Source: a virus. From it: a DNA stretch of 64,000 nt. Of the stretch, positions 13,581 to 26,202 are shown piece by piece. Below the pieces are notes generated by a model. That model made no database searches and was not told where the DNA came from. It saw only the letters and a list, made by a program, of their open reading frames with translations. Location: IMG/VR virus record IMGVR_UViG_3300037475_000032, positions 64,001 to 128,000 of that record; one strand, given 5' to 3'. Position numbers and translations under genes: made by a program. Numbering within the stretch: position 1 is the first letter of the stretch; every line of letters starts with the position of its first letter.

Positions 13581-14399
13581 ATGGATCGGCCTTCCCAATA
13601 CCAGCGCTACCTCCAGTCTGAGCACTGGAGGGGCACGAAGGAAGCCTTCTGGAGCCAAGTTGAGAGGGCTTGTGAGGTATGTGGGAGCGAACATCAGCTA
13701 GAGGTGCATCACTGCTCCTACGCAAGGATCGGACGCGAGGAGTGGGGAGATCTAGTCGCTCTCTGTCGCCGCTGCCACGAGGCCGTCCATAGGCTCATTG
13801 AGAATGGTCAGGCCGAGCTTGAGAACGCTCATCTAGTACTCGATGGAGAAACGCCTGCATCGCCCCTGAGGATGCGTGGGAGGGTTAGGAGGGGCGATGT
13901 CTTGCAGGCCGACTCGGCAAAGCGACCCTTCGCGGCCAGTAGCGTCCCGCTCTTTGTCGAAGATGGCAAGACCTACACAGTCTCGGACCTAGACCACATC
14001 GCCACGCACATGCTCTGGATGCAGGGTGTTGGGGAGCACCGAATCCTCTTTACTCGTGCGCAGTGGAGGAACCGACTGACACCTGAGCTATTCGCCTCCG
14101 GGGACGTGATGGCCCCAGATCCCTCCTACACCTACGACCGCCATCACAACAGCATCGCGGGCATGTACAACCGCACCCATCCCGAAGGCCGTCAGTGGAA
14201 TAGTGAGGAGGAACGCAAAGAGTCGGGGCGCTCCTTCTACCGCAACACCAAAGTCACGGAGCATCGCGCTGTCGGCAAGTTCGTTTCGTCCTCGGCCCCA
14301 ACAATCACGAGGAACCTCACTAAACCGCTCTCCAAGCTAGAGATTGCCCTGATGGAGGCTGAGGAGAGGCGCGCAAAGAAAATCTTGAAGGCGGGGTAG
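13581..14399 (+). CDS. HNH endonuclease domain fused to an unknown domain
   Basis: YLQSEHW..CEVCG..VHHCSY..LVALCRRCH. Confidence 0.75.
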   Translation: MDRPSQYQRYLQSEHWRGTKEAFWSQVERACEVCGSEHQLEVHHCSYARIGREEWGDLVALCRRCHEAVHRLIENGQAELENAHLVLDGETPASPLRMRGRVRRGDVLQADSAKRPFAASSVPLFVEDGKTYTVSDLDHIATHMLWMQGVGEHRILFTRAQWRNRLTPELFASGDVMAPDPSYTYDRHHNSIAGMYNRTHPEGRQWNSEEERKESGRSFYRNTKVTEHRAVGKFVSSSAPTITRNLTKPLSKLEIALMEAEERRAKKILKAG

Positions 14400-14413
14400 T
14401 ATTTTGCTATCCT
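14385..14413 (+). promoter_or_regulatory. sigma70-type promoter of the RNA array
   Basis: TTGAAG-N17-TATCCT. Confidence 0.55.
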
Positions 14414-14533
14414 TCCGTGGCGTAGGATATGAAGCACTTATGCAGAGCTATTTTGGACACCTGAATATCGAAGCAAAGGCTGGTTCGCCAGTCTCATAGC
14501 TCCTGGTCCCATATCACCACGATAGGTCCCAGG

Positions 14534-14573
14534 AGCCCTCCGAGAAAGATTTCTCAGGAGGGCTTCAACTTTT
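14534..14573 (+). terminator. terminator-like hairpin in the array leader (possible attenuator)
   Basis: AGCCCTCC-GAGAA..TTCTC-GGAGGGCT followed by TCAACTTTT. Confidence 0.6.
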
Positions 14574-14645
14574 CAGGAGAGTGTGGTAGAGTCTCGAACG
14601 AAGCGGTCAGGCAGAGCCGCTAACATAGAAATCGCCAGCCAAGAT

Positions 14646-14718
14646 GCCCTTGTAGCCCAACGGACAAGGCACTCGCCTTCTAAGCGAGCGATTGGGGGTT
14701 CGATTCCCTCCAAGGGCG
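14646..14718 (+). tRNA. tRNA-Arg(TCT)
   Basis: cloverleaf, CTCGC ctTCTaa GCGAG. Confidence 0.93.
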
Positions 14719-14899
14719 CTACCGGCTTTACTCCCACCGGACATACTCAACGGGAGTGCGCAGGGTAAAAACCTACGTTGGCAGCGGTAACCATACCGCA
14801 ATGCGGGGATGTGCTCCCGTGGCCCCTAAGCCTAACAGCCGGGGTCTAGTTGCCACAGTCGAGGTCGCGCCCGGAAAAGTAGTGTCCTGCGTTCAACAT

Positions 14900-14983
14900 G
14901 CGTGTCAGGTGACTATCGGTTTGTCTCAGCGGGCTGTAACCCCGTGGCCTCTGGCTTGGAAGGTTCGACTCCTTCGGCACGCA
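14900..14983 (+). tRNA. tRNA-Tyr(GTA), atypical D arm
   Basis: ctGTAac, variable arm, TTCGA. Confidence 0.8.
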
Positions 14984-14987
14984 CTCT

Positions 14988-15070
14988 GCGCAAATGATGG
15001 AATGGTAGACATGCTGTCTTGAGGAGGCAGTGCCCTAACGGGCGTGAGGGTTCGACTCCCTCTTTGCGCA
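14988..15070 (+). tRNA. tRNA-Leu(GAG)
   Basis: cloverleaf, long variable arm. Confidence 0.92.
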
Positions 15071-15074
15071 TCAT

Positions 15075-15156
15075 GCCGAAGTGATGGAATGGTAGACGTG
15101 CCACGCTTAGAACGTGGTGCCCTTGTGGCGTGCGGGTTCGACTCCCGCCTTCGGCA
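15075..15156 (+). tRNA. tRNA-Leu(TAG)
   Basis: CCACG ctTAGaa CGTGG. Confidence 0.93.
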
Positions 15157-15158
15157 CT

Positions 15159-15231
15159 TGCAGTAAGGTGGTCTGGATGACCATTTGTGGCTCATATCCA
15201 CAAGAGGAGAGTTCGATTCTCTCTGCTGCTA
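15159..15231 (+). tRNA. tRNA(CAT) Met, atypical
   Basis: TGTGG ctCATat CCACA; 1:72 mismatch. Confidence 0.75.
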
Positions 15232-15234
15232 TAC

Positions 15235-15316
15235 GTCTCTGTGGTGGAACTGGCAGACACGCACGGTTCAAACCCGTGTGCCATTTGGCGTGAGGGTTCG
15301 ACTCCCTCCAGGGACA
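15235..15316 (+). tRNA. tRNA-Leu(CAA)
   Basis: CACGG ttCAAac CCGTG. Confidence 0.93.
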
Positions 15317-15326
15317 TGTAGTACGA

Positions 15327-15399
15327 GGGGCTATAGCTCAGTTGGGAGAGCATCGCGCTGGCAGTGCGAGGGTCAGGGGTTCGAGTCCCCTTAGCTCCA
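15327..15399 (+). tRNA. tRNA-Ala(GGC)
   Basis: G3:U70, ctGGCag. Confidence 0.95.
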
Positions 15400-15499
15400 T
15401 CGTCGCTTCCGGGTTGCCCGTGCCAGCGGGGACCGGACAAACACACTCCCTGGCAGGAGTGGAACAATACGGCCACAAGTGCCGGGCGGATGAAGTTTA

Positions 15500-15573
15500 C
15501 AGAACGTGGCGCAGCTTGGTAGCGTGCTCCCTTGGGGTGGGAGAGGTCGCGGGTTCAAATCCCGCCGTTCTGA
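15500..15573 (+). tRNA. tRNA-Pro(GGG)
   Basis: cloverleaf. Confidence 0.93.
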
Positions 15574-15577
15574 CTGA

Positions 15578-15648
15578 CGGGGACAAGTGTTATGGCCGCA
15601 CGGGGCGTTTGGGGCGCTCTAGTCAGAGTTCGATTCTCTGGTCCCCGA
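15578..15648 (+). tRNA. tRNA-Pro(TGG)
   Basis: cloverleaf. Confidence 0.88.
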
Positions 15649-15746
15649 TAGCGTTGATGGTAAGTCGTGTCTAGGTGACAGGTGCCGGATCACCACTCAT
15701 TGAGTGCCGGAACAACATCGAGTCAACCGTCGCGGTCAACGCATAG

Positions 15747-15820
15747 CAGGATATGGCGCAGTCTGGTAGCGCGCTCCCCTCGGACGGGAGAGGTCGGAGG
15801 TTCGAATCCTCTTATCCTGA
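15747..15820 (+). tRNA. tRNA-Pro(CGG)
   Basis: cloverleaf. Confidence 0.93.
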
Positions 15821-15921
15821 TAGTCGGAAACCCTCGCGCAAGGGCGTATTGGAAGGGAGTCATGACCCCGAAGACATCGGAAGTAGCGGACAAAGGTACG
15901 CCTACCCGGTGCGGCTAACAT

Positions 15922-15993
15922 GCCTACATGGTGTAAGTGGTATCATCCTGACCTGGTACGTCAGTGTCCCGAGTTCGATTCTCGGTGTAGGCT
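15922..15993 (+). tRNA. tRNA-Thr(GGT)
   Basis: CTGAC ctGGTac GTCAG. Confidence 0.9.
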
Positions 15994-15994
15994 T

Positions 15995-16186
15995 ATGGTA
16001 TGCAAGAGTGGAAAGAGAACATATCCCTCGAAGCGGCAAGCTGCTAAGCGAGCCGTGAATCTCAGCATCCAGGAAGGGAAGGGTCTTTGGCCGTACAAGT
16101 GCCCGGAATGTCCCGATTGGCACTTGACATCGAAACGGCCGTCGAAGCGCTCTTACAAGTGCCGCGATGGGACCCGCAACCGATAG
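15995..16186 (+). CDS. small Zn-binding phage protein
   Basis: MVCKSGKRTY..YKCPECPDWHLTS. Confidence 0.7.
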   Translation: MVCKSGKRTYPSKRQAAKRAVNLSIQEGKGLWPYKCPECPDWHLTSKRPSKRSYKCRDGTRNR

Positions 16187-16189
16187 CTT

Positions 16190-16261
16190 GCCTGCTAGGT
16201 GTTTACGGTGGCACACTTCACTCGTAATGAAGAGGACGGGGCTCGAATCCCCGAGTGGGCT
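16190..16261 (+). tRNA. tRNA-Thr(CGT)
   Basis: CTTCA ctCGTaa TGAAG. Confidence 0.85.
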
Positions 16262-16266
16262 TAGAT

Positions 16267-16335
16267 GGGGTGTAGGTCATGGTGACCAATCGGATTCCAA
16301 ACCCGAAGGCGAGCGTTCGATTCGTTCACGCCCCG
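16267..16335 (+). tRNA. tRNA-Trp(CCA)
   Basis: ttCCAaa loop, TTCGA. Confidence 0.85.
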
Positions 16336-16445
16336 CTCGACGTGCTGCAAGCGACGGCTTGTAGAGTTGTGGTGCTGTAGTCGAAGGCACGCGCCAGCAA
16401 CAATGCTGCCCGTGGACAGGCTTAAAACCTCTCTCGCGGGCTTTT

Positions 16446-16519
16446 GGTTCCTTAGCTCAGTTGGTTAGAGCGCCGCCCTGTCAAGGCGGAGGTCACGGGT
16501 TCGAGTCCCGCAGGGACCG
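16446..16519 (+). tRNA. tRNA-Asp(GTC)
   Basis: canonical cloverleaf. Confidence 0.95.
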
Positions 16520-16525
16520 CTTCAT

Positions 16526-16597
16526 GCGTTCGTATGGTTAGTGGTAGACCCTCCGACTTTTAATCGGAAAGCTGGGGTTCGATTCCCCACGAACGCA
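16526..16597 (+). tRNA. tRNA-Lys(TTT)
   Basis: TCCGA ctTTTaa TCGGA. Confidence 0.9.
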
Positions 16598-16767
16598 CTA
16601 GACGTGGTGACCGTCTAAGAAGGTGTAGGCCCTTGTTAGGGTTGAACCTCGTAAACTCACCACCGCCCGGTTCCCTACACCGGCAAAGGCACGGTAGGGC
16701 GTGTCATGACAATAGAGGGGTTCACGTTCCCGTCAGGGAGTCGTGCTTCGTCTCGGCGGTTCTACTT

Positions 16768-16842
16768 AGACCCTTAGCTTAGATGGCCTAAAGCGTCGGT
16801 TTTACACACCGAAGATCCTGGGTTCGAAACCCAGAGGGTCTA
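16768..16842 (+). tRNA. tRNA-Val(TAC)
   Basis: cloverleaf. Confidence 0.92.
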
Positions 16843-16883
16843 CTTGCGTCAGGTTCTTTTCCTCCTTTCTTCCTGACGCTTTT

Positions 16884-16955
16884 GGGCGACTAGCTCATTG
16901 GGAGAGCGCCTGCGTGACATGCAGGAGGTACGGGGTTCGATCCCCCGGCCGCCCA
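16884..16955 (+). tRNA. tRNA-Val(GAC)
   Basis: cloverleaf. Confidence 0.92.
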
Positions 16956-16966
16956 CTGTAGTACAT

Positions 16967-17389
16967 GGGCCTGACAGGCTTCGACTTCATGAGAGGCTGT
17001 TGGCGTCATGCAGCGGTATGGACACACCTTAAGGTCCAACGTCATAATCGGCAACGATACAGACACGCTAGCAATCCCGGCATCGTTCCTTGCAGGTGAG
17101 CAGATGGCTCCTGCGGAGGTTCACGTCGGAGGCGCAGCACTCGCACTGGTTTAGACCCCAGTGCCGGGTTTCTCACACTCCCTGTGAACAGAAAGTGTGA
17201 GTGGTGCATCAGTGCAAGCTCGTACCGTAGTAATGCAGGATGGTAGCCCCGCGCGTTTTCCTAGTTTCCCGATATGAACTAGGTGGTGGAAAAGATGGCG
17301 GCAAGCCCGTCGTCCCCGGTAGTGAAAGCTGCTAGACAATGACCCAAAGAAGCGCATGGAACACGAGGGTTCGATTCCCTCCAGGTCCA
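16967..17389 (+). ncRNA. ssrA: tmRNA
   Basis: 5' GGGCCTGACAGGCTTCGAC, 3' GAGGGTTCGATTCCCTCCAGGTCCA with G3:U70; tag ORF 17050-17154 ending AALALV*. Confidence 0.93.
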
Positions 17390-17393
17390 CTAT

Positions 17394-17465
17394 CTCCTTA
17401 TAGTCCAATGGATAAGACGACCGCCTCCTAAGCGGTAGATTCAGGTTCGACTCCTGATGGGGAGA
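17394..17465 (+). tRNA. tRNA-Arg(CCT)
   Basis: cloverleaf. Confidence 0.93.
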
Positions 17466-17565
17466 CTCTTGTAGCGCCCTAGCCATTGCGAAGGGCTCGG
17501 TTGCGGGGAACGGACAGATAATCTCGCTTCCAAGTGGTCTGTCACTTGTGGTGTCTATGAGAAAT

Positions 17566-17653
17566 GGAAAGACGGCAACGGCTGGCGACGCAGCTTCCCT
17601 GCTAAGGAAGTGGTCCTTCATTGGGCCTATGGGTTCGATCCCCATTCTTTCCG
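17566..17653 (+). tRNA. tRNA-Ser(GCT)
   Basis: long variable arm, G73. Confidence 0.88.
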
Positions 17654-17805
17654 CTCAATCTTGGTCGTAGGCTATTCCCTACCACAGCTAGAGTTCGAAC
17701 TGGCAAGGGGAGTAAGACGATAGCCCCGCTGCGGAGCGGATCAGCCCGGATCTCGTGCCTACACAAAACGGACAGTAAGTAGCCGGGGCCTACCAAGATG
17801 TTCAT

Positions 17806-17877
17806 TCTCCTGTGGCGCAATGGCAGCGCGGCAGCCTGTTAAGCTGACGGTTGAAGGTTCGAGTCCTTCCGGGAGAG
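17806..17877 (+). tRNA. tRNA-Asn(GTT)
   Basis: cloverleaf. Confidence 0.93.
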
Positions 17878-17879
17878 CT

Positions 17880-18233
17880 ATGGTTCGTAACTGTAAGAAG
17901 CACGGAGAGGTGAGACATCGATCTCGCGGAAAGCGAGGTTGGCGTTGTACTCTCTGCGCCAACGAATCAGTCTCGAACAGTCGCAGAAAGATCAAGCGTA
18001 TCCTTGTGGAAGAACACGGAAGCGCTTGCAAGATCTGTGGCTACAATCGTTGTATCGCGGCCCTTCACTTTCATCATGTCGATCCAGAGACTAAGAGCTT
18101 TGGGGTCGCGGCAGGAGGAAGTGCAAGGTCGCTCAAGAGAGCACGCGAAGAGGCCGCCAAGTGCGTCCTTTTGTGCTCGAACTGCCACGCCGAGATAGAG
18201 GCTGGCATTACGTCCCTGTGGCCGAATGGTTAG
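17880..18233 (+). CDS. HNH endonuclease
   Basis: CKICGY..ALHFHHVDP..KCVLLCSNCH; 3' end overlaps tRNA-Cys. Confidence 0.88.
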   Translation: MVRNCKKHGEVRHRSRGKRGWRCTLCANESVSNSRRKIKRILVEEHGSACKICGYNRCIAALHFHHVDPETKSFGVAAGGSARSLKRAREEAAKCVLLCSNCHAEIEAGITSLWPNG

Positions 18234-18282
18234 GTACGCGGCTGCAACCCGTGGTATGCAGGTTCGACTCCTGTCAGGGACT
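18212..18282 (+). tRNA. tRNA-Cys(GCA)
   Basis: cloverleaf, U73. Confidence 0.92.
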
Positions 18283-18326
18283 TGCAGGTAGCGGCGTCTG
18301 CCTGAGATGGCTCAACGCCGCGCTTT

Positions 18327-18412
18327 GGAAGGTGACCGGCATGGACGAGGACACCGCCTTGAAAGCGGCTGGGGACTAACCGCCCTCAAGGGTTCGATTC
18401 CCTTACCTTCCG
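18327..18412 (+). tRNA. tRNA-Ser(TGA)
   Basis: long variable arm. Confidence 0.88.
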
Positions 18413-18443
18413 CTCCTATCCCCGCAAAGCAAAGGATTGTATC

Positions 18444-18857
18444 TTGAGAGCAGTCATGTACCTCTTTGCCAACAAAGGGCTCGGCATGTCGTCGGGCAAG
18501 ATGTCGGCACAAGTGGCCCACGCAGCGGTCGAGGCATTTCACATCAGCGATCCCGAGTTGGTTGCTCAGTGGTACGTCGGCGGCCATTACTGCAAGTACG
18601 TGATGGCAGCGGAGGATGAAGTTCACCTTCACACCATCAAGTACTACCTGGAGCAGCGGGGCTTCAAGACGAAGCTCATTGTCGATGAGGGTCACACGGA
18701 GATCCGTCCTCATACGGCTACGGCTCTGGGTGTCGAGATCGTGGACAAGGATGACGCTCATGTCGCTGCCACGTTCGGAGACTTCAAGATCTACCGCGAT
18801 CCTCCAGTGCGTCCTAAACCGGATAAGCTGAGGCGTCGTAGGTGGTATCACTCATAG
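18444..18857 (+). CDS. peptidyl-tRNA hydrolase, Pth2 type
   Basis: LGMSSGKMSAQVAHAAV, IVDEGHTEI, TALG. Confidence 0.9.
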   Translation: MRAVMYLFANKGLGMSSGKMSAQVAHAAVEAFHISDPELVAQWYVGGHYCKYVMAAEDEVHLHTIKYYLEQRGFKTKLIVDEGHTEIRPHTATALGVEIVDKDDAHVAATFGDFKIYRDPPVRPKPDKLRRRRWYHS

Positions 18858-18882
18858 CAGTCAAGTCAAGGAGAAAAGAACA

Positions 18883-19086
18883 GTGGCACTACTCGCAAGA
18901 CAGGACAACACCCCCCCCGCACTCGCCGCTGAGCTAGATGCTCACAAGCAGCGCTATCAGGCGGGCCGCGCATCGGTCATCGAGCGTGGGACTCAGAGGG
19001 TCGCCCAGATCAAGCACCTCCAGAAGGAGCTTGAGGCTGAGGCTTCCGCCCATCAAGCTGTGTTGGAGCAAGCACACCAGTCGTAA
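18883..19086 (+). CDS. small coiled-coil protein
   Basis: AAGGAG RBS. Confidence 0.65.
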   Translation: MALLARQDNTPPALAAELDAHKQRYQAGRASVIERGTQRVAQIKHLQKELEAEASAHQAVLEQAHQS

Positions 19087-19104
19087 GACAGCAAGGGAGT
19101 CGTC

Positions 19105-19320
19105 GTGTTTACCGAAGACGAGATAAAGGCATTGGTCGCGCACGCTGTACACATGGCACGCACGACGACTCCTGGAAATGTCTGCAATGAGGCAGTCGTA
19201 CAGCAGGTCATGAAGGAAGAGTTCGTGCCCGGACAGGGATGGAAGTCCAAGTACTTCACATCCGATGAGCGCCCGGAGACGGACTTGATCGATCTTTGGC
19301 TCTCAGAGCCACGTATCTAG
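19105..19320 (+). CDS. hypothetical protein
   Basis: GGGAG RBS. Confidence 0.6.
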   Translation: MFTEDEIKALVAHAVHMARTTTPGNVCNEAVVQQVMKEEFVPGQGWKSKYFTSDERPETDLIDLWLSEPRI

Positions 19321-19407
19321 GAAGGTACGCGAATGGTTAGCACGCTGCTTGGAAAGCAGTTGGTCGTTTAAACGCACGGCTTGTGGGTTCGAGTCCCATG
19401 CCTTCCG
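19320..19407 (+). tRNA. tRNA-Ser(GGA)
   Basis: long variable arm. Confidence 0.88.
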
Positions 19408-19411
19408 CTCT

Positions 19412-19496
19412 GGATAGTACGCGAATGGAAAGCAGCCTGCCTCGAAAACAGGTGTAGGGTGAAAGTCCTTTCTGGGTTCGAGTCCCAGGCTATCCG
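19412..19496 (+). tRNA. tRNA-Ser(CGA)
   Basis: long variable arm. Confidence 0.88.
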
Positions 19497-19499
19497 TAA

Positions 19500-19571
19500 G
19501 GCGATTTAGCTCACTGGTAGAGCGGCACGCTGAAAACGTGCGCGTACCGAGTTCGATTCTCGGAATCGCCA
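19500..19571 (+). tRNA. tRNA-Phe(GAA)
   Basis: cloverleaf. Confidence 0.93.
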
Positions 19572-19594
19572 TCCATCCTGGTCCATAATAGGTG

Positions 19595-20077
19595 ATGCAA
19601 CCAGGAGATTTCATCCTTTGTCACCGTAAGGGGATCGTCAGCAGTATCATCCGTCTTGGTGAGCGCATACGCTTCCGTTCGGGTGACAGATGGTCCCACG
19701 TCGCCATCGTGGAGAACGATGAATGGATCATCGAGGCTCTGACGAAAGGCGTAGTGCGTTCACACATCTCAGTCTATGACAAGACCGAGAAGCTGCTTGT
19801 CAGCAGCGGCCTAGATGAGCACGACCGCCCGCAGGCTGTCGCCTTCGCTCAAAGCTGTGTGGGGCAGAAATACGGATGGCTCATCATCTTCGGAATCGCT
19901 CTGCGCTTCCTCACTCCGGGTCGAGGTCTTTGGTTCGGCTCAGATGGCAGTGAGATTTGCAGTGGCCTTGTGGCCCAGGCGTTGGTGCGTGGCCCGAAGA
20001 TCTTCAAGGTCAACCCTGCTAGCATCACTCCAGCGGAGTTGGCGGAAGAATACGCTGTACCGCACAAGAGCAAGTAG
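19595..20077 (+). CDS. permuted papain-like (YiiX/YebB, NlpC/P60) amidase
   Basis: QPGDFIL, WSHVAI, GQKY, ICSGLV. Confidence 0.85.
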   Translation: MQPGDFILCHRKGIVSSIIRLGERIRFRSGDRWSHVAIVENDEWIIEALTKGVVRSHISVYDKTEKLLVSSGLDEHDRPQAVAFAQSCVGQKYGWLIIFGIALRFLTPGRGLWFGSDGSEICSGLVAQALVRGPKIFKVNPASITPAELAEEYAVPHKSK

Positions 20078-20150
20078 GGGTTGGTAGCTCAACTGGCAGA
20101 GCAGGGGCCTCTTAAGCCCAAGGTTGAGGGTTCGATTCCCTCCCAACCCA
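20078..20150 (+). tRNA. tRNA-Lys(CTT)
   Basis: cloverleaf. Confidence 0.93.
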
Positions 20151-20155
20151 CTCAT

Positions 20156-20227
20156 AGGAACATGGTGAAATGGTAATCACGACTCTCTGATACGGAGTTA
20201 TTCTGGGTTCGATTCCCAGTGTTCCTA
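20156..20227 (+). tRNA. tRNA-Ile(GAT)
   Basis: cloverleaf. Confidence 0.92.
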
Positions 20228-20233
20228 CTGCAT

Positions 20234-20304
20234 GGCCCGGTCGTCCATGGGTAGGACCGTTGTTTCTCAGGCAACAAAACAGGGTTCGAGTCCCTGTCGG
20301 GCTA
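20234..20304 (+). tRNA. tRNA-Glu(CTC)
   Basis: cloverleaf. Confidence 0.9.
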
Positions 20305-20462
20305 CTACTAATCAACCTCCTTGGAGGTAGATACAGGTCGGAGGTTCAGGTTGTCGCGCGCAGCCATCACGATCTCTGACCGGCCCGTGGATTCCCGTAT
20401 GAGGTGAGGTAAAATCTCACTGTGCCGTAACGGGATGGTGGAGGAAGCGACGGCGATTACGA

Positions 20463-20536
20463 CGCGGAGTGGAGCAGTCTGGAAGCTCGCTTGGCCCATA
20501 ACCAAGAGGTCGGGGGTTCGAATCCCTCCTCCGCTA
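20463..20536 (+). tRNA. tRNA-fMet(CAT)
   Basis: CGCGGAGTGGAGCAG, C1:72 mismatch. Confidence 0.9.
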
Positions 20537-20600
20537 TACGGATGAAAACATGCACATGTACCCACTTCATGTGTACGTTTTCCTCCAATGATGTGTACAT

Positions 20601-20674
20601 TGCTCGTTAGGGGAATTGGCAGACCCGCTCGGCTCTGAACCGAGAGTATCCAGGTTCGACCCCTGGACGAGCAG
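20601..20674 (+). tRNA. tRNA-Gln(CTG)
   Basis: U1-A72, ctCTGaa. Confidence 0.92.
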
Positions 20675-20680
20675 CTTCTT

Positions 20681-20752
20681 TCCGGGATCGTACAATCGGC
20701 AGTACGGCGGACTCTGAATCCGCAAATCGAGGTTCGAGCCCTTGTCCCGGAG
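20681..20752 (+). tRNA. tRNA-Gln(CTG)
   Basis: U1-A72, ctCTGaa. Confidence 0.92.
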
Positions 20753-20847
20753 CTAATACAGCGTCACCGTTGGGTGACCGGAGGTCCGTCAGATGGCGGC
20801 CGTACGGGTGAGCGCTACCGCTTTCGGGTGAGAGTCCCGACTTACAT

Positions 20848-20942
20848 GCGTCTGTAGCTGAATGGTAGAGTCGGCCTCAAAAACCGGCCACAGCACTGGG
20901 TTTTCACCCCAGCGGATGCGGGTTCAAGTCCCGTCAGGCGCA
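20848..20942 (+). tRNA. tRNA-Glu(TTC) with about 20-nt D-loop insertion
   Basis: CTGGG ttTTCac CCCAG; 95 nt. Confidence 0.8.
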
Positions 20943-20947
20943 CTCAT

Positions 20948-21022
20948 TGGGGAATAGAATATGCTGGTATGTTCGCCTGACTTTGAATCAGGAGGCCGTG
21001 GGTTCGATTCCTACTTCCCCAG
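20948..21022 (+). tRNA. tRNA-Gln(TTG)
   Basis: cloverleaf. Confidence 0.9.
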
Positions 21023-21026
21023 CTTT

Positions 21027-21129
21027 GCCCTTGTGGCGGAATCGGCATACGCATCCGGCTTAAACCCGGCCACGCGAGCTTCCTCTCAACAAGGTCTCGC
21101 ACTTGAGGGTTCGACTCCCTCCAAGGGCA
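21027..21129 (+). tRNA. tRNA-Leu(TAA), oversized variable arm
   Basis: ctTAAac; 103 nt. Confidence 0.85.
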
Positions 21130-21207
21130 CTTCGCCCCAGATCCGCCTCTGCTCGATACTGCGACGGCAGTGAGTATGCGCCTGGGGCCACGAATGTAGT
21201 GAACCAT

Positions 21208-21280
21208 GGCGTGGTTCGTATATCGGTCAATACTCCAGGTTGTGAACCTGGCAAGATGGGTTCGATTCCCATACCTCGCC
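21208..21280 (+). tRNA. tRNA-His(GTG)
   Basis: encoded G-1, C73. Confidence 0.9.
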
Positions 21281-21282
21281 CT

Positions 21283-21356
21283 GTGAGCGATCCCGAAGTG
21301 GTCGAGGGTCCGGGTTGTGATTCCGGCGTAGGCGAGTTCGAGTCTCGTCGCTCACC
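21283..21356 (+). tRNA. tRNA-His(GTG)
   Basis: cloverleaf, C73, no encoded G-1. Confidence 0.88.
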
Positions 21357-21385
21357 CTTTTCTTCGTGCTCCTCATCCGTAATGG

Positions 21386-21724
21386 ATGATGTTCCGCAAA
21401 GGCAATACGGTCCCACTCAGAGAGTACTTCGAGGCTCTACGTGTTGCCGACCAACGAGCCCTCCAGATCAAGGAGGTAGCGGACAAGGATGCACTCAGGC
21501 TGGCTCGTGAGATCCAGACGTACAAGGACGAGAAGGCTAACGAGCTACGCAGTCAGATCGAGCGAGAACAAGGCGAACGTGCCACCAAGAAGGAACTGCA
21601 AGATCTGGCAGACCGCATCCAGGAGGAACGCCACACGGGCGGTCTCGATACACGCACATTGGTCGTTAGCATAGTCCTGATTCTTGTGGGTATAGCTGCG
21701 ATCATCGGGCCACATATTCACTAA
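21386..21724 (+). CDS. coiled-coil protein with C-terminal TM helix
   Basis: LVVSIVLILVGIAAII. Confidence 0.7.
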   Translation: MMFRKGNTVPLREYFEALRVADQRALQIKEVADKDALRLAREIQTYKDEKANELRSQIEREQGERATKKELQDLADRIQEERHTGGLDTRTLVVSIVLILVGIAAIIGPHIH

Positions 21725-21728
21725 CTTT

Positions 21729-21802
21729 GCTCCTCTGGTGTAACGGTTAGCACAACTGGTCTTATAAGCAGTCAGGTCGGGGTTCAAATCCTCGGGGGAG
21801 TA
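21729..21802 (+). tRNA. tRNA-Ile(TAT), bulged anticodon stem
   Basis: ACTG(G)T ctTATaa GCAGT. Confidence 0.75.
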
Positions 21803-21814
21803 CTTGCAGCATAC

Positions 21815-21889
21815 GGGTGTGTACCAAATGTTGGCTTTGGAACTGGCTCTTAACCAGAGTACACGCAGGTTCGATTCCTGTCACGCCCA
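21815..21889 (+). tRNA. tRNA-Lys(CTT), atypical
   Basis: CTGG ctCTTaa CCAG. Confidence 0.8.
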
Positions 21890-21890
21890 T

Positions 21891-22025
21891 GGGTGGTCCG
21901 CGAGGACATTGCGGGTTCGAGTCCCGTCATGGACACAACGCCGTTACCTGTGTGTACAGCAGGTGCGCTCGATTCTAGATAGAGCGAGGCCAAGTGCTCG
22001 TGTATGCTAACTGGTAAAGCAGCCC
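21891..22025 (+). ncRNA. circularly permuted tRNA-like RNA (YrlA-like topology)
   Basis: Variable arm, T arm and acceptor 3' strand precede the acceptor 5' strand and D arm. Confidence 0.6.
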
Positions 22026-22033
22026 TAACGCTT

Positions 22034-22108
22034 GTCGCCATCGTCTAGCCTGGTTCAGGACGCGGCCCTCTCACGGCCGAAACACGGGTTCAAATCCCGT
22101 TGGCGGTA
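22034..22108 (+). tRNA. tRNA-Glu(CTC)
   Basis: cloverleaf. Confidence 0.93.
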
Positions 22109-22135
22109 CTTGCTCAGATGTGGTATCCTACCGCC

Positions 22136-22771
22136 ATGAGTCGCGCTAGACCATGGAGGGATCAGGAGACCGGACAAACCCACTGGTTTGACTACCGTTC
22201 TTCCTCCGCCACAGTCGAGCAACTTGAGATCTTGGCCGATGCAGAGGGTCTTGATCTTGACGACCTACTTGACGAGGGCCTGTCGCAAAGGCAGGTGTTG
22301 TTTCGGCTACATGCCGTCACTAACCTCATCCCGGAGAGAGTCCTGGAGCGCAGGCAAGAACGCCTCGAACGCTCCCAGGTCGAACCGATCTGCCGGATAT
22401 GCAGCTTGTACGGATGGGAGTGCGAGGGTAAGATCACTCGTCACCATTTCGTGCCAAGGTGGCTCATGCGAGAGCTTGATAGCTACCAGACCTACGCCGC
22501 GAAGGCGAGGTGTACCATCCCCGTGTGTGTCGGTCGCCACCGCGATCTTCACTACAGGGAAAGTGATATTGACAAGAGCATCGTTCCGTACCTAACGGCT
22601 GAGGAGAAGGAGCTAGCACGCATCCTACTCCAAGAGCTAAAGGACGAGCGTCCAACGATCTACGAGTTGATCGGCGGCGGAAGTACTGCGAGCTACGAGT
22701 ACCAGCTTGTCCGAGACTTTAGGCGAGGAGGTTTCGAGTCAGTGACACATGGAGAAATTGAAGGTCCATAG
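22136..22771 (+). CDS. HNH-like hypothetical protein
   Basis: CRIC..ITRHH..PVCVGRHRDLH; TATCCT-N6-ATG leaderless start. Confidence 0.65.
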   Translation: MSRARPWRDQETGQTHWFDYRSSSATVEQLEILADAEGLDLDDLLDEGLSQRQVLFRLHAVTNLIPERVLERRQERLERSQVEPICRICSLYGWECEGKITRHHFVPRWLMRELDSYQTYAAKARCTIPVCVGRHRDLHYRESDIDKSIVPYLTAEEKELARILLQELKDERPTIYELIGGGSTASYEYQLVRDFRRGGFESVTHGEIEGP

Positions 22772-22811
22772 CCTTACGCCGTGAGTGAGGGCGAAAATAC
22801 TCACTCAGCTA

Positions 22812-22884
22812 CTCCTCGTGGTCCAGTGGATAAGACGCTGCCCTGCGAAGGCGGAGATCGGAGGTTCGAGTCCTCCCGAGGAGA
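22812..22884 (+). tRNA. tRNA-Arg(GCG)
   Basis: CTGCC ctGCGaa GGCGG. Confidence 0.9.
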
Positions 22885-22887
22885 CTA

Positions 22888-22959
22888 GATGCGGTGGCCC
22901 AAGTGAGAGGCAGCCCGACAAGGGAAGAGTTGCCGGAATCCAAACCCGGCTCGCATCTG
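22888..22959 (+). ncRNA. tRNA-like RNA with collapsed anticodon arm
   Basis: AGATGCGG/TCGCATCT stem, D-like arm, CCC gacaa GGG, GCCGG/CCGGC arm. Confidence 0.5.
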
Positions 22960-22973
22960 CTATTGTAGTTCTT

Positions 22974-23047
22974 GCCCATATCGCCTAACGGACATGGCAC
23001 CAGTCTTCGAAACTGGCACAATCCGGGTTCGACTCCCGGTGTGGGCG
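22974..23047 (+). tRNA. tRNA-Arg(TCG)
   Basis: cloverleaf. Confidence 0.92.
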
Positions 23048-23302
23048 CTAGGAAGGTAGCTCCTTCCCAGAGGGACGAGAGAAGTCCGCGACAACCAAGA
23101 TGGACTGTGAGGGAGTTGCGGGGTAAGGTTCGCTACCGGCTTACATCTGGGCTATTCAGTCAACGCACCAGAGGGCCAAAGGGTAGGTCCCATCTCTTCG
23201 TTCCTTGTCTTTAGGCTCCTGCCGCTGACCTGAAAAGGCGGGAGTAGGTCAGAAGGCCCACGGTGCGCTACCAGCACTGCGATGTTCGCCCGTGGGACCC
23301 TT

Positions 23303-23374
23303 GGGGTAGTCGTATAACGGCGATTACAGCAGCTTGCCATGTTGCAGACGGGGGTTCGACTCCCCTCTACCCCT
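23303..23374 (+). tRNA. tRNA-Gly(GCC)
   Basis: ttGCCat, U73. Confidence 0.9.
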
Positions 23375-23498
23375 CTTCGCCGCAGGCGATGGTGAGCGCA
23401 GTCAGGAGTGAGCACGCAGCAGCAAGTTAGTACGGTACAGTACGGTTGGGGACTCATAAACCCTATACTTGCGGCGCACGTCCGCACGTACTAATCAC

Positions 23499-23572
23499 GC
23501 ACTTGTAGCTCAGATGGTAAGAGCACTGGCTTGAAACCCCAGGTGTCGGAGAGTCGAAACCTCCCAAGTGCA
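23499..23572 (+). tRNA. tRNA-Phe(GAA), atypical T arm
   Basis: cloverleaf. Confidence 0.85.
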
Positions 23573-23863
23573 TGTAGTAGACGGCCGCTGTCCCTAGACT
23601 GGGGATAGAGGAAGTTCGGGACATCCTGGCCTGGGAAACTGGGTCGCTTCCGTAACCAGGAGGCATAGACAACTGACGTGTGGCGGGAGCCCTTGGCGCT
23701 TGAACCGAGCACGGTTGGTGAGGATGCAATCTCAAGCAGCGAAACCTAAGGGCTCTGCCTATGGTCATAGCGGGTTGGGAGCAGCGTGGGGATAACACCC
23801 TATACGCCACGCGCGAGCGTGAGAAAGATGGTCGTCCTAGACAGAATCCCGGCTACAGCTACA
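23573..23863 (+). ncRNA. rnpB: RNase P RNA (compact)
   Basis: CR-I GAGGAAGTTCGGGAC and CR-V ACAGAATCCCGGCTA pair as P4; P1, P2 (GACGGCC/GGTCGTC), P3 and P5 (CATCCT/AGGATG-CAA) are present. Confidence 0.87.
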
Positions 23864-23867
23864 GTAT

Positions 23868-23939
23868 GCCTGCTAAGCATAAATGGTGATGCACTGGTCT
23901 TGTAAACCAGATAACTGGGTTCGATTCCCAGAGTAGGCT
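23868..23939 (+). tRNA. tRNA-Thr(TGT)
   Basis: cloverleaf. Confidence 0.92.
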
Positions 23940-23968
23940 TCTCGCTCCATCCCTCGACTTAAGAGGTG

Positions 23969-24457
23969 ATGAGTGACTTTCGTGTGATCCAAGGATGCCC
24001 GTGTAACCCTACACTGGCCCCGTACATCGCCATGGTCTCTGAGGAGATCAACGGTGTCGTCAACAGTATCTATCGTGGTGCTGATGCCGAGTCGATCCTT
24101 CGAGCACACGGACACCAGAGTCAGGCCCAACTCTACAACGGTTGGATTCACAGGTTGCCGGGATACCTTCCCGCTAACCCTCCTGGCCGAAGCACTCACG
24201 AGCTTCGCTCCGATGGAGTCGCTTACGCGGGTCCGGTAGGTCGCAAGCTCGATTGGTGGCAGCAGGGCTTCGACGTGAATGACGATCAGGTCAATCACTG
24301 GAAGTCCGCAGCACGCAGCCATGGATGGGTACTCTTTCAGCCGTACAACAGCGGCTCCGAGTTCCACCACCTCAACTTCCATCAGCCTCCGCATCCGCCG
24401 AGTCTGAGAACGAGATTGAGGATCATCAAGTTGCGAGCGACGCTGCCACGTCACTAA
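23969..24457 (+). CDS. M15-like Zn peptidoglycan peptidase
   Basis: QAQLY..ANPPGRSTHE..DV..EFHH. Confidence 0.7.
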   Translation: MSDFRVIQGCPCNPTLAPYIAMVSEEINGVVNSIYRGADAESILRAHGHQSQAQLYNGWIHRLPGYLPANPPGRSTHELRSDGVAYAGPVGRKLDWWQQGFDVNDDQVNHWKSAARSHGWVLFQPYNSGSEFHHLNFHQPPHPPSLRTRLRIIKLRATLPRH

Positions 24458-24461
24458 TCAT

Positions 24462-24533
24462 GGGGGATTAGTGCTAATGGGAACACGCTGCCCTTGCAAG
24501 GCAGAGTTACGGGTTCGACTCCCGTATCCTCCA
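24462..24533 (+). tRNA. tRNA-Ala(TGC)
   Basis: G3:U70. Confidence 0.93.
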
Positions 24534-24535
24534 CT

Positions 24536-24603
24536 GCGCACGTAGTCTAAGTAGGACGCCCGCCATGAGGCGGGTAGTGCAGGTCCGACCCCTGCCGTGT
24601 GCT
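24536..24603 (+). ncRNA. tRNA-like RNA with 4-6 nt anticodon loop
   Basis: GCGCACG/CGTGTGC-U, CCCGCC atga GGCGGG, T arm GCAGG tccgacc CCTGC. Confidence 0.65.
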
Positions 24604-24607
24604 CTAT

Positions 24608-24678
24608 GCGGGTATGGTCTAATGGTATGACAAGTGCCTTCCAAGCTCTTGATGCCGGTTCGATTCCGGCTATCCGCT
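24608..24678 (+). tRNA. tRNA-Gly(TCC)
   Basis: cloverleaf. Confidence 0.92.
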
Positions 24679-24784
24679 CTCTGTGAGCCCCAGACGCGCC
24701 ATCCGTGCGGGAATAGACGGCCGTCACCAATACCGGAATGTGTCTCGGGTGTAAACGACCATGAACACGGCGCTCATAGTACCC

Positions 24785-24856
24785 GGTTCCATAGTGAAAC
24801 GGCCATCACGCTAGCCTGTCACGCTGGAGGTAGGGGTTCGATTCCCCTTGGGACCG
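24785..24856 (+). tRNA. tRNA-Asp(GTC)
   Basis: cloverleaf. Confidence 0.92.
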
Positions 24857-25003
24857 CTTAGGCTATACAGACCGGGCACATCAGCCCGGACGCTGAGCTA
24901 ACTCTCGTCGTCCTTGCCATGTGCCGCACCCCGGATTAGGGAGTACATGGGCGTCGAGTTACACGAGTAGCCGATCATCCGTGCAAGCGGTAGGTGAAAG
25001 CCA

Positions 25004-25074
25004 CGCTCTCAGGCGATGGCAGCCAAACGGAGTCATAATCCGTCTAGGTGTGGGTTCGAGTCCCACGGGAGCGA
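25004..25074 (+). tRNA. tRNA(CAT) Met/Ile2, atypical
   Basis: ACGGA gtCATaa TCCGT. Confidence 0.8.
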
Positions 25075-25149
25075 CTAACAACCGGGCGCGATATCCTCGA
25101 CACAGGACTCTCATCTTAGTTTTCTTTGAGTCCTGGCGCGGAATAAGTG

Positions 25150-25782
25150 ATGGCATCAAATCGCTATTTCGCAGACATCTCCTCGAATAACTCGTTCTTC
25201 GACGCTGAGGACTACCGTCGCGGTGGTCATCTCCTCGTAGCGATCAAGGCTACGCAGGGAACAGGCTACGTTAACCCCGACTACAAGAGGTGGGTCCTCG
25301 ACGCCCACAACCACGGGCTCGTCGTCCTCCATTACCACTTCGCCACGACCAACGACCCCATCGCCGAGGCCAACCACTTCCTTTCCACCACGAGGAACTA
25401 CTTCGGCAAGAGAGATTCGCTTGTCCTCGACCTTGAGGTCACGGCTCAGGACAACCCCGGTCAGGGCTACACGCTCACCAACCCGGTGAACTACCGCAAG
25501 TGGTTCGACACGCAGCTATTCCGTCACGGCCACAAGTCGATCCTGTACAGCTACGCTGCCTACCTACGTCAGTACGGCGCAGGGCTCAGGCCGATCTCGA
25601 AGAAGATCTGGGTCGCCGACTACGAGACCCATCCTCAGGGCGGATGGTGGGGCAACTCGTGGGCCTGGCAGTTCACGGATGGTGAACACGGGCCGAAGCC
25701 GCACTCGTGCATGGGTGTCGGACGCTGCGATGTCTCGCAGGTCAATCCGGCTACCTATCTTCGCTTGCGTCTCGGTCGCTAA
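25150..25782 (+). CDS. GH25 muramidase (endolysin)
   Basis: DIS, KATQGTGYVNP, YHF, LDLE, WVADY, WQFT. Confidence 0.92.
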   Translation: MASNRYFADISSNNSFFDAEDYRRGGHLLVAIKATQGTGYVNPDYKRWVLDAHNHGLVVLHYHFATTNDPIAEANHFLSTTRNYFGKRDSLVLDLEVTAQDNPGQGYTLTNPVNYRKWFDTQLFRHGHKSILYSYAAYLRQYGAGLRPISKKIWVADYETHPQGGWWGNSWAWQFTDGEHGPKPHSCMGVGRCDVSQVNPATYLRLRLGR

Positions 25783-25824
25783 ATAGGTGGCGTGGAGACG
25801 CAATCCAACCTTCAAGGAGAACAC

Positions 25825-26202
25825 ATGGCAGAACCAGGAGCAGTAGCACCAACAGCCGCAGATCCGGCTATTCAGACCGCCGTCACAGACGTTGCGCAGG
25901 AGGTTCCTGCGGTCGTCAAGGACGTTGAGACCAAGAACGTCGCTGGCGTCGTATCAGCCGGTGAGTCCCTTTACTCGGAGCTTGCTCCGCTTGCCCCAAC
26001 CCTCCTACAGGAGGCCAAGGCTGGCTACAAGACAACCGAGTTCTGGGTCTTGATCGTATGGGAGGCCGCAACACAGACAGGAGCCTTGCATCTTCCGGGC
26101 ACCTGGGGCAAGCTCGTCGCCGGTATCGGCGGAGTCGCTTCCTACGTCCTCTCGCGTGGTCTTGCCAAGAGCGGCACACCGAACCAGACGCCTAGCGTCT
26201 AG
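25825..26202 (+). CDS. putative holin
   Basis: Follows the lysin; GYKTTEFW..YVLSRGLAK with TM segments. Confidence 0.65.
   Translation: MAEPGAVAPTAADPAIQTAVTDVAQEVPAVVKDVETKNVAGVVSAGESLYSELAPLAPTLLQEAKAGYKTTEFWVLIVWEAATQTGALHLPGTWGKLVAGIGGVASYVLSRGLAKSGTPNQTPSV

Follow-up and report, generated by a model that had tools for sequence, protein, structure and literature searches.

Clusters of transfer RNA (tRNA) genes in phage genomes are usually seen as codon-usage or anti-defence kits. The tRNA gene cluster of phage T4 also contains RNAC and RNAD (species 1 and 2 RNAs), which share a precursor with the tRNAs and are processed by RNase P. Processing punctuated by tRNAs is likewise familiar from mitochondrial transcripts and from MALAT1/mascRNA, where RNase P and RNase Z cuts set the ends of the neighbouring RNAs. 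RNAC and RNAD are described as RNAs of yet unknown function (PMC9697503). We describe here a plus-strand tRNA gene array at 14646-25075 of a 64,000-nucleotide stretch of viral DNA (the window; positions 64,001 to 128,000 of IMG/VR record IMGVR_UViG_3300037475_000032, which is complete, 160,765 bp long and has terminal repeats), in which fifteen long spacers separate tRNA genes. We moderately favour the reading that at least five of these spacers, and probably about nine, are distinct small structured RNA genes, which share a transcript with the tRNAs and are released when the tRNA ends are processed.

RNAC and RNAD appear to be the closest precedent. The likeness is one of description: in both cases the tRNA cluster of a phage also encodes, on the same strand, small RNAs other than tRNAs. 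Unlike T4, with its two RNAs, the present phage has several different ones, one of them pseudoknotted. Unlike the mitochondrial and MALAT1 cases, the products here would be small structured phage RNAs, made by a processing that we infer. YrlA/Y RNA-like RNAs (Ro60 partners, RF02553) are likewise structured RNAs in tRNA slots of large phages, but the present spacers, unlike these, are not copies of one family. The only match to RF02553 (22.3 bits, E 0.58) lies at 19465-19526 and overlaps tRNA-Ser and tRNA-Phe. A search of the complete 160,765-bp genome for Ro60/TROVE (PF05731) gave no match while its controls matched, and an RtcB gene is absent from the genome. The candidate identification of the spacers as Y RNAs was ruled out because the genome lacks Ro60.

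The array comprises 50 tRNAs (47 found by ARAGORN and three more by Rfam), a transfer-messenger RNA (tmRNA) and an RNase P-like RNA. An initial annotation, made from the sequence alone, had listed the fifteen spacers as more than ten structured RNAs, interleaved between tRNAs otherwise a few nucleotides (nt) apart and assignable to no known family. The ARAGORN and Rfam calls bear out its coordinates as genuine gaps between plus-strand tRNA genes, and many other tRNA gaps measure just 1-10 nt. Rfam was run at the gathering cut-off (tRNAs only) and, permissively, at E<=10 on 14000-26000. Even the permissive run has no match inside any listed spacer, so that none of the fifteen matches any of the 4,227 families of Rfam 15. 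The closing stems and internal helices that the annotation had noticed fared less well. Twelve of the fifteen spacers were folded individually and compared with dinucleotide shuffles (14720-14899, 17655-17805 and 20306-20462 were not folded alone). Four folds are above chance: 15649-15746 (z -2.2), 16337-16445 (z -2.5), 21131-21208 (z -3.8) and 24858-25003 (z -3.1). The other eight are at 15400-15499 (z -1.1), 15821-15921 (-0.18), 16599-16767 (-1.5), 17467-17565 (-0.9), 20754-20847 (-0.78), 23049-23302 (-1.33), 23376-23498 (-0.2) and 24680-24784 (-1.29). Most spacers fold like shuffled sequences, and a stem that the eye picks out is therefore no proof on its own.

Related arrays allow comparison across genomes. 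With the PTH2 gene in mid-array as a handle, arrays of about 15 related phage contigs were fetched, among them L002, L005, L008, L022 and L023 from IMG/VR and metagenomes, and L025, L026, L027, L031/L032, L033, L035 and L036 by exact protein look-up; L063 is an array taken from a whole relative genome. The nearest relative, L025, has 90-95% DNA identity to the window. Among the relatives tRNA order is largely kept, whereas the spacers are far more fluid. Five spacers show covariation across four to eight phages; four more are supported by two to three lineages or by structure-sparing substitutions, and the remaining six show no such support. The count of more than ten is not reached, although about nine is a fair count and five are firm. 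New structured RNA families are thus really present in the array, fewer than had been claimed and of a generally familiar kind. Alignment-shuffle z scores range from -3.7 to -7.0 for the five strong RNAs, and those counted in favour span -2.5 to -7.0; in six stretches the predicted structure is spared by the substitutions relative to L025.

One of the strong RNAs, here called S_end (24858-25003, plus strand), is pseudoknotted and abuts a tRNA(CAU) at 25004. A covariance model (R1) built on the window, L063, L033 and L022 recovered S_end at full length from L002, L023, L008 and L036 (E 4e-13 to 2.5e-6), and the RNA always lies directly upstream of the same short-D-arm tRNA(CAU). In the alignment 99.5% of cells are paired, compared with 26-50% in slid controls; both sides have changed in 12 of 18 pairs, and none of 500 shuffles reaches the score. 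Helix P1 reads CUUGC/GCAAG, with the variants UUAG/UUAA and UAUC/GAUA, and it is crossed by P4 ((G/C)CC with GG(U/G)), which makes the pseudoknot. P2 is a covarying stem of 7-8 bp that presents the invariant loop CGCACCCCGGAUnAGGGA. Variants in the alignment hint at an additional pairing, ACUC(N)/(N)GAGU. The 3' end, ...GAAAGCCA, is conserved, and its invariant GCCA stops exactly at the tRNA +1 position. In the window the S_end loop (CGGAUUA) is perfectly complementary to the anticodon arm (UAAUCCG) of the tRNA that follows. A pairing between the two was considered and rejected: the tRNA arm varies in relatives and the loop does not, and the complementarity is therefore a coincidence. On the other side of the tRNA(CAU), a conserved motif, CCGGGCGCGA (25076-25095 in the window), follows in six related arrays, upstream of a GH25 lysin gene.

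The hairpin module of S_end, with covarying stems, also occurs in unrelated viral contigs. It lies near tRNAs in L042, L044 and L045, while L040, L047, L049 and L051 carry it with no tRNA found nearby; a search of these other viral contigs with Rfam gave no match. The hairpin pattern has at least 120 matches in bacterial genomes, by estimate about the number expected by chance. The flanking stem accompanies two of the bacterial copies, as against 14 of 16 in viral contigs. One of these two, L128:7390-7417 (minus strand), is in a metagenome-assembled genome of Solirubrobacterales and could be a prophage or hint at the host, a weak lead. S_end may represent a new class of pseudoknotted viral RNA, organised around this hairpin module, that would gain a ...GCCA 3' end after the RNase P cut and could mimic a tRNA or serve as a protein or small-molecule sensor gating the supply of tRNA(CAU), a proposal that we regard as speculative and rather improbable. 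With its virus-wide hairpin module, S_end is the RNA best suited to structural and biochemical work.

The other four strong RNAs likewise lie on the plus strand. S1 (14720-14899), a multi-helix RNA of about 150 nt between tRNA-Arg(UCU) and tRNA-Tyr, occurs as two subtypes, with seven members in all (window, L025, L031, L005, L063, L185 and L186). Both sides have changed in 11-12 of its pairs, and its closing stem exists in three mutually complementary versions; the alignment-shuffle z is -3.7, and the test of substitutions relative to L025 gives p=0.007. S9 (17467-17565), between tRNA-Arg(CCU) and tRNA-Ser(GCU), is found in the window, L025, L005 and L031. In its alignment 97% of cells are paired, compared with about 42% in slid controls, and both sides have changed in six pairs, five of them in a central helix; none of 500 shuffles matches the score, and the alignment z is -5.3. 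L022 and L023 lack S9 and have a 3-nt spacer at that slot. A pattern scan for additional S9 homologues gave four new matches, which proved unrelated. S10 (17655-17805), between tRNA-Ser(GCU) and tRNA-Asn, is shared by the window, L025, L033 and L005, with both sides changed in 12 of 28 pairs, including the closing stem and two hairpins (alignment z -6.2). The sequence AACGGACAG was considered as a motif common to S9 and S10 and dismissed, as this 8-mer occurs at chance frequency in the window. The last of the four, a long conserved hairpin at 21131-21208, is present in the window, L025, L008 and L033, with 100% of cells paired, both sides changed in six pairs, a structure conservation index (SCI) of 1.03 and z -7.0. 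Its slot differs in L008 and L033, where it lies between tRNA-Pro(CGG) and tRNA-Thr(GGU).

Four further plus-strand spacers have moderate support. That at 15400-15499, between tRNA-Ala(GGC) and tRNA-Pro(GGG), forms a four-way junction and is found in the window, L025 and L031. At 70% identity to L025 the junction is kept, with both sides changed in 11 of 28 pairs; none of 500 shuffles reaches the score, and the L025 substitution test gives p=0.002. Two complementary loops (GCCAG/CUGGC) co-vary in L025 (GCUAG/CUAGC). The spacer at 16337-16445, between tRNA-Trp and tRNA-Asp, forms three hairpins, the last followed by UUUU. It is kept in L025 (96%) and L027 (86% over 86 nt), the pairing of the U-tailed 3' hairpin is preserved through changes, and the alignment z is -2.5. 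A metatranscriptome contig skips 16335-16444, and some relatives therefore lack this RNA. The spacer at 20306-20462, between tRNA-Glu(CUC) and an initiator-like tRNA-Met, is shared by the window, L025 and L026, with both sides changed in seven pairs, an alignment z of -2.9, and all eight substitutions relative to L025 sparing the structure (p=0.03). For the four-hairpin spacer at 20754-20847, moderately to weakly supported, L025 is the sole comparison: six of nine substitutions keep pairs and none of the nine breaks one (p=0.002).

The junction at 15400-15499 is cloverleaf-like, and one of its loops, CUGGCAG, is identical to the anticodon loop of the adjoining tRNA-Ala, a match that we treat as a lead and not as a finding. 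It speaks for a reading of the spacers as tRNA genes in decay, or as non-canonical tRNAs missed by the finders, as does the length of many spacers, about 100 nt. A clear tRNA 3' half does occur in the array, at 21890-22033 (similarity z 6.5). That segment is the exception: compared with 49 tRNAs, the spacers show shuffle-level similarity, with 16599 and 20306 reaching z 3.4. The tRNA model RF00005 has no match in the listed spacers at E<=10, and relaxed ARAGORN runs (80% threshold, introns allowed) return scattered low-score calls that overlap real tRNAs. For the listed spacers this reading is largely refuted, and we consider it very unlikely. The segment at 21890-22033 (plus strand), which directly follows tRNA-Lys and was absent from the initial list, is a tRNA remnant with a variable arm, a T arm and the 3' strand of the acceptor. 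It differs from L025 by 19 substitutions, of which ten keep pairs and one breaks a pair, and it resembles the 95-nt tRNA at 20848.

Six of the listed spacers, all on the plus strand, are without support. The 98-nt insert at 15649-15746 is specific to the window: L025 has 5 nt there, and no homologue was found in the fetched loci. The spacer at 15821-15921 is replaced in L025, and part of it has a match in L063, at a slot other than its own (SCI 0.25, z +0.65). That at 16599-16767 contains a conserved core of 40-70 nt, weakly supported; its match in L027 is limited to query positions 55-124, the alignment z is -2.45 and the L025 substitution test gives p=0.19. The long spacer at 23049-23302 is 66% identical to L025, with conservation in the last 94 nt only. 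Neither of these two long spacers, which were checked for coding, has a conserved reading frame, and 23049-23302 has no open one. At 23376-23498 the L025 substitution test shows no sparing of the structure (p=0.35), and for 24680-24784 no homologue occurs in any fetched locus. These remaining spacers are best explained as lineage-specific filler or recent insertions, with no sign of function.

Such comings and goings could be read more broadly, with the spacers as small selfish or mobile insertions that gather between tRNA genes. L025 lacks 15649-15746, 16844-16883, 17879-18211 and most of 19572-20077 and carries unrelated sequence at 15821-15921, so that presence at the first four of these differs between genomes of 90-95% identity; metatranscriptome contigs join across 15649-15746 and 16335-16444, and the hairpin of the 21131 type sits at different slots in different phages. 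An all-against-all blastn comparison of 153 spacers from 11 arrays, on the other side, returned only syntenic pairs and no common repeat family, and most of the supported RNAs are strictly syntenic in distant relatives, with compensatory evolution. As an account of the spacers, mobile insertion is in our view highly improbable.

The reading we favour, that of small RNA genes punctuated by tRNAs, would work as follows. The array would be one long plus-strand transcription unit, within which some relatives have additional promoters, and the tRNAs would serve as punctuation. For nearly all tRNAs of the array (14646-25075) the discriminator base is followed by U, with an encoded CCA missing, and the three bases preceding the tRNAs are mostly CAU or end in UU. 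These uniform flanks are likely to be processing signals of the phage lineage, and they suggest a single endonucleolytic cut behind every tRNA, with RNase P cutting ahead of the one that follows. An endonuclease cutting just after the discriminator base would thus create the 5' end of a spacer RNA, and RNase P, perhaps in the form of the phage's own RNA of that type (23569-23870), would create its 3' end by cutting at +1 of the next tRNA; S_end alone would thereby acquire a ...GCCA end. Each of these RNAs has its own fold and recurs at the corresponding slot of related arrays, and closing stems and pseudoknots would protect the freed RNAs, which may thereby persist as discrete, stable molecules. 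The suggestion of the initial annotation that the array acts as an expression cassette fits five to nine spacers, which keep the same slots, show compensatory changes, lie on the tRNA strand and have edges at tRNA-end signals. It does not extend to the six of the fifteen without support, among them 15649-15746, missing in the near-identical L025. As the RNAs would be co-transcribed with tRNAs, the tmRNA, the RNase P-like RNA and the PTH2 gene, our best guess for their role is in the phage takeover of tRNA supply and translation. The tRNA transcription unit of one soil-phage lineage would then also carry varied, evolutionarily maintained folded RNAs named in no library, and the 50-year-old puzzle of RNAC and RNAD would extend to a whole lineage; the covarying alignments make testable what the phages need the spacer RNAs for.

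Soil metatranscriptome contigs from two studies hold relatives of the array and cover parts of it; uncovered parts carry no information. Depth is very unequal (tmRNA about 190-250, RNase P-like region about 37-48, open reading frames about 6-14), and this therefore fits RNA and not a uniform carry-over of DNA. The second-highest depth is that of the RNase P-like RNA together with the spacers at 23059-23498, on the same RNA-library contigs.

Several observations weigh against the interpretation as excised RNA genes. Folded alone, most spacers do no better than shuffles. L035 has a full array with spacers of 3-6 nt, and spacer RNAs are therefore dispensable for tRNA production. Several spacers are present in one and absent from another of two near-identical genomes. 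Several families consist of just three to four sequences, and related sequences can beat shuffles without structure. The metatranscriptome contigs, finally, give coverage and not RNA ends or accumulation.

A different reading of the same conservation is that the spacers act in cis only, as leaders, insulators of folding, barriers to exonucleases, hairpins for pausing or termination, or processing guides by which maturation of the tRNAs beside them is tuned. S_end always adjoins the same odd tRNA(CAU), and a promoter precedes S1 in relatives: the layout TTGACA-N14-TGnTAnnnT stands just upstream of the 14720-type RNA in L025, L031, L005, L063 and L002. Hairpins with only 3-4 terminal U lie right before tRNAs at 16337-16445, 16844-16883 and 18283-18326. 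Set against this, consensus scans for sigma-70 promoters and terminators found neither enriched; the intrinsic-terminator consensus has six sites where 8.9 are expected, none of them on the plus strand of the listed spacers. The hairpin at 21131 changes slot in other phages, and the elaborate folds, with pseudoknots and invariant loops, are each different. Many tRNAs of the array, moreover, would mature with spacers of 1-5 nt, and L035 is nearly without spacers. We give action in cis only a real though distinctly smaller chance than release as separate RNAs.

A structured leader of 232 nt lies before the first tRNA (14414-14645, plus strand), outside the range covered by the initial annotation. 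Its fold has z -3.88, with none of 200 shuffles as good, and 16 of 21 substitutions relative to L025 fall in loops (p=0.007); homologues are limited to L025 and a weak match in L002. A promoter-like site on the plus strand at 14385-14413 (TTGAAG, 14 nt, TGCTATCCT), found by pattern search upstream of the array, is the sole site of the TTGACA-N14-TGnTAnnnT kind in the window.

The missing CCA recalls a further described system. HDV-like (hepatitis delta virus-like) theta ribozymes adjoin CCA-less phage tRNAs in gut phages that have their own CCA-adding enzyme (Kienbeck et al. 2024, PMC10879173). The present spacers also adjoin CCA-less phage tRNAs, and S_end has interleaved helices, so some spacers might be self-cleaving ribozymes that trim tRNA 3' trailers. 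A ribozyme of this type would be a nested double pseudoknot (P1, P2, a 3-bp P3, P1.1 and a catalytic C) that starts no more than about 5 nt from the 3' end of a tRNA. Neither the Rfam ribozyme families, which have no match, nor a scan with an HDV-like descriptor supports self-cleavage. The descriptor, a loose one, has 29 matches against 18-40 in shuffles, and none of these begins 6 nt or less from the 3' end of a tRNA, so that, unlike in the gut phages, no HDV-like fold begins at the end of any tRNA here. The helix order of S_end is also unlike the HDV layout. That some spacers are self-cleaving ribozymes seems hardly credible.

The remaining features of the array are mostly genes and tRNAs. 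The tmRNA (16967-17390, plus strand) lies inside it and has by far the top depth in two soil metatranscriptome runs, where the covering contigs belong to a variant strain. The RNase P class A-like RNA at 23569-23870 (plus strand) is a weak match (38.6 bits, E 3e-9) that spans the full model length in 302 nt, and it is kept in L002, L005, L023, L025, L027 and L033. The PTH2 gene is at 18444-18857, and other open reading frames inside the array are at 19592-20077, 21386-21724, 22100-22771 and 23966-24457. A 196-nt gap at 15994-16189, between tRNA-Thr(GGU) and tRNA-Thr(CGU) and absent from the initial list, is a small gene within the array rather than an RNA: 15995-16186 (plus strand) codes for a basic protein of 63 residues that shows C...CPxC spacing, in a single frame that is conserved in L025 and L005.

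Rfam added three plus-strand tRNAs by the tRNA model, at 20848-20942, 21027-21130 and 23499-23572; the first two are matches of 95 and 103-104 nt, with inserts. In tRNA-Leu(UAA) ARAGORN reads a 31-nt intron, 22 nt of which are missing in L025. A near-identity search of public phages gave only a match to a tRNA-Asp. Between the window and L025 (14646-23560) identity is a mosaic, with many tRNAs at 100% and same-anticodon tRNAs for Trp, Asn, Cys, Ala and Arg(UCG) only 60-85% identical, a pattern which suggests that recombination swaps single tRNA genes. Gene-sized inserts at 17879-18211, 19572-20077 and 21358-21728 are missing from the near-identical L025, and the 161-residue open reading frame at 19592-20077 has a homologue in a relative genome (G001) outside any tRNA array.

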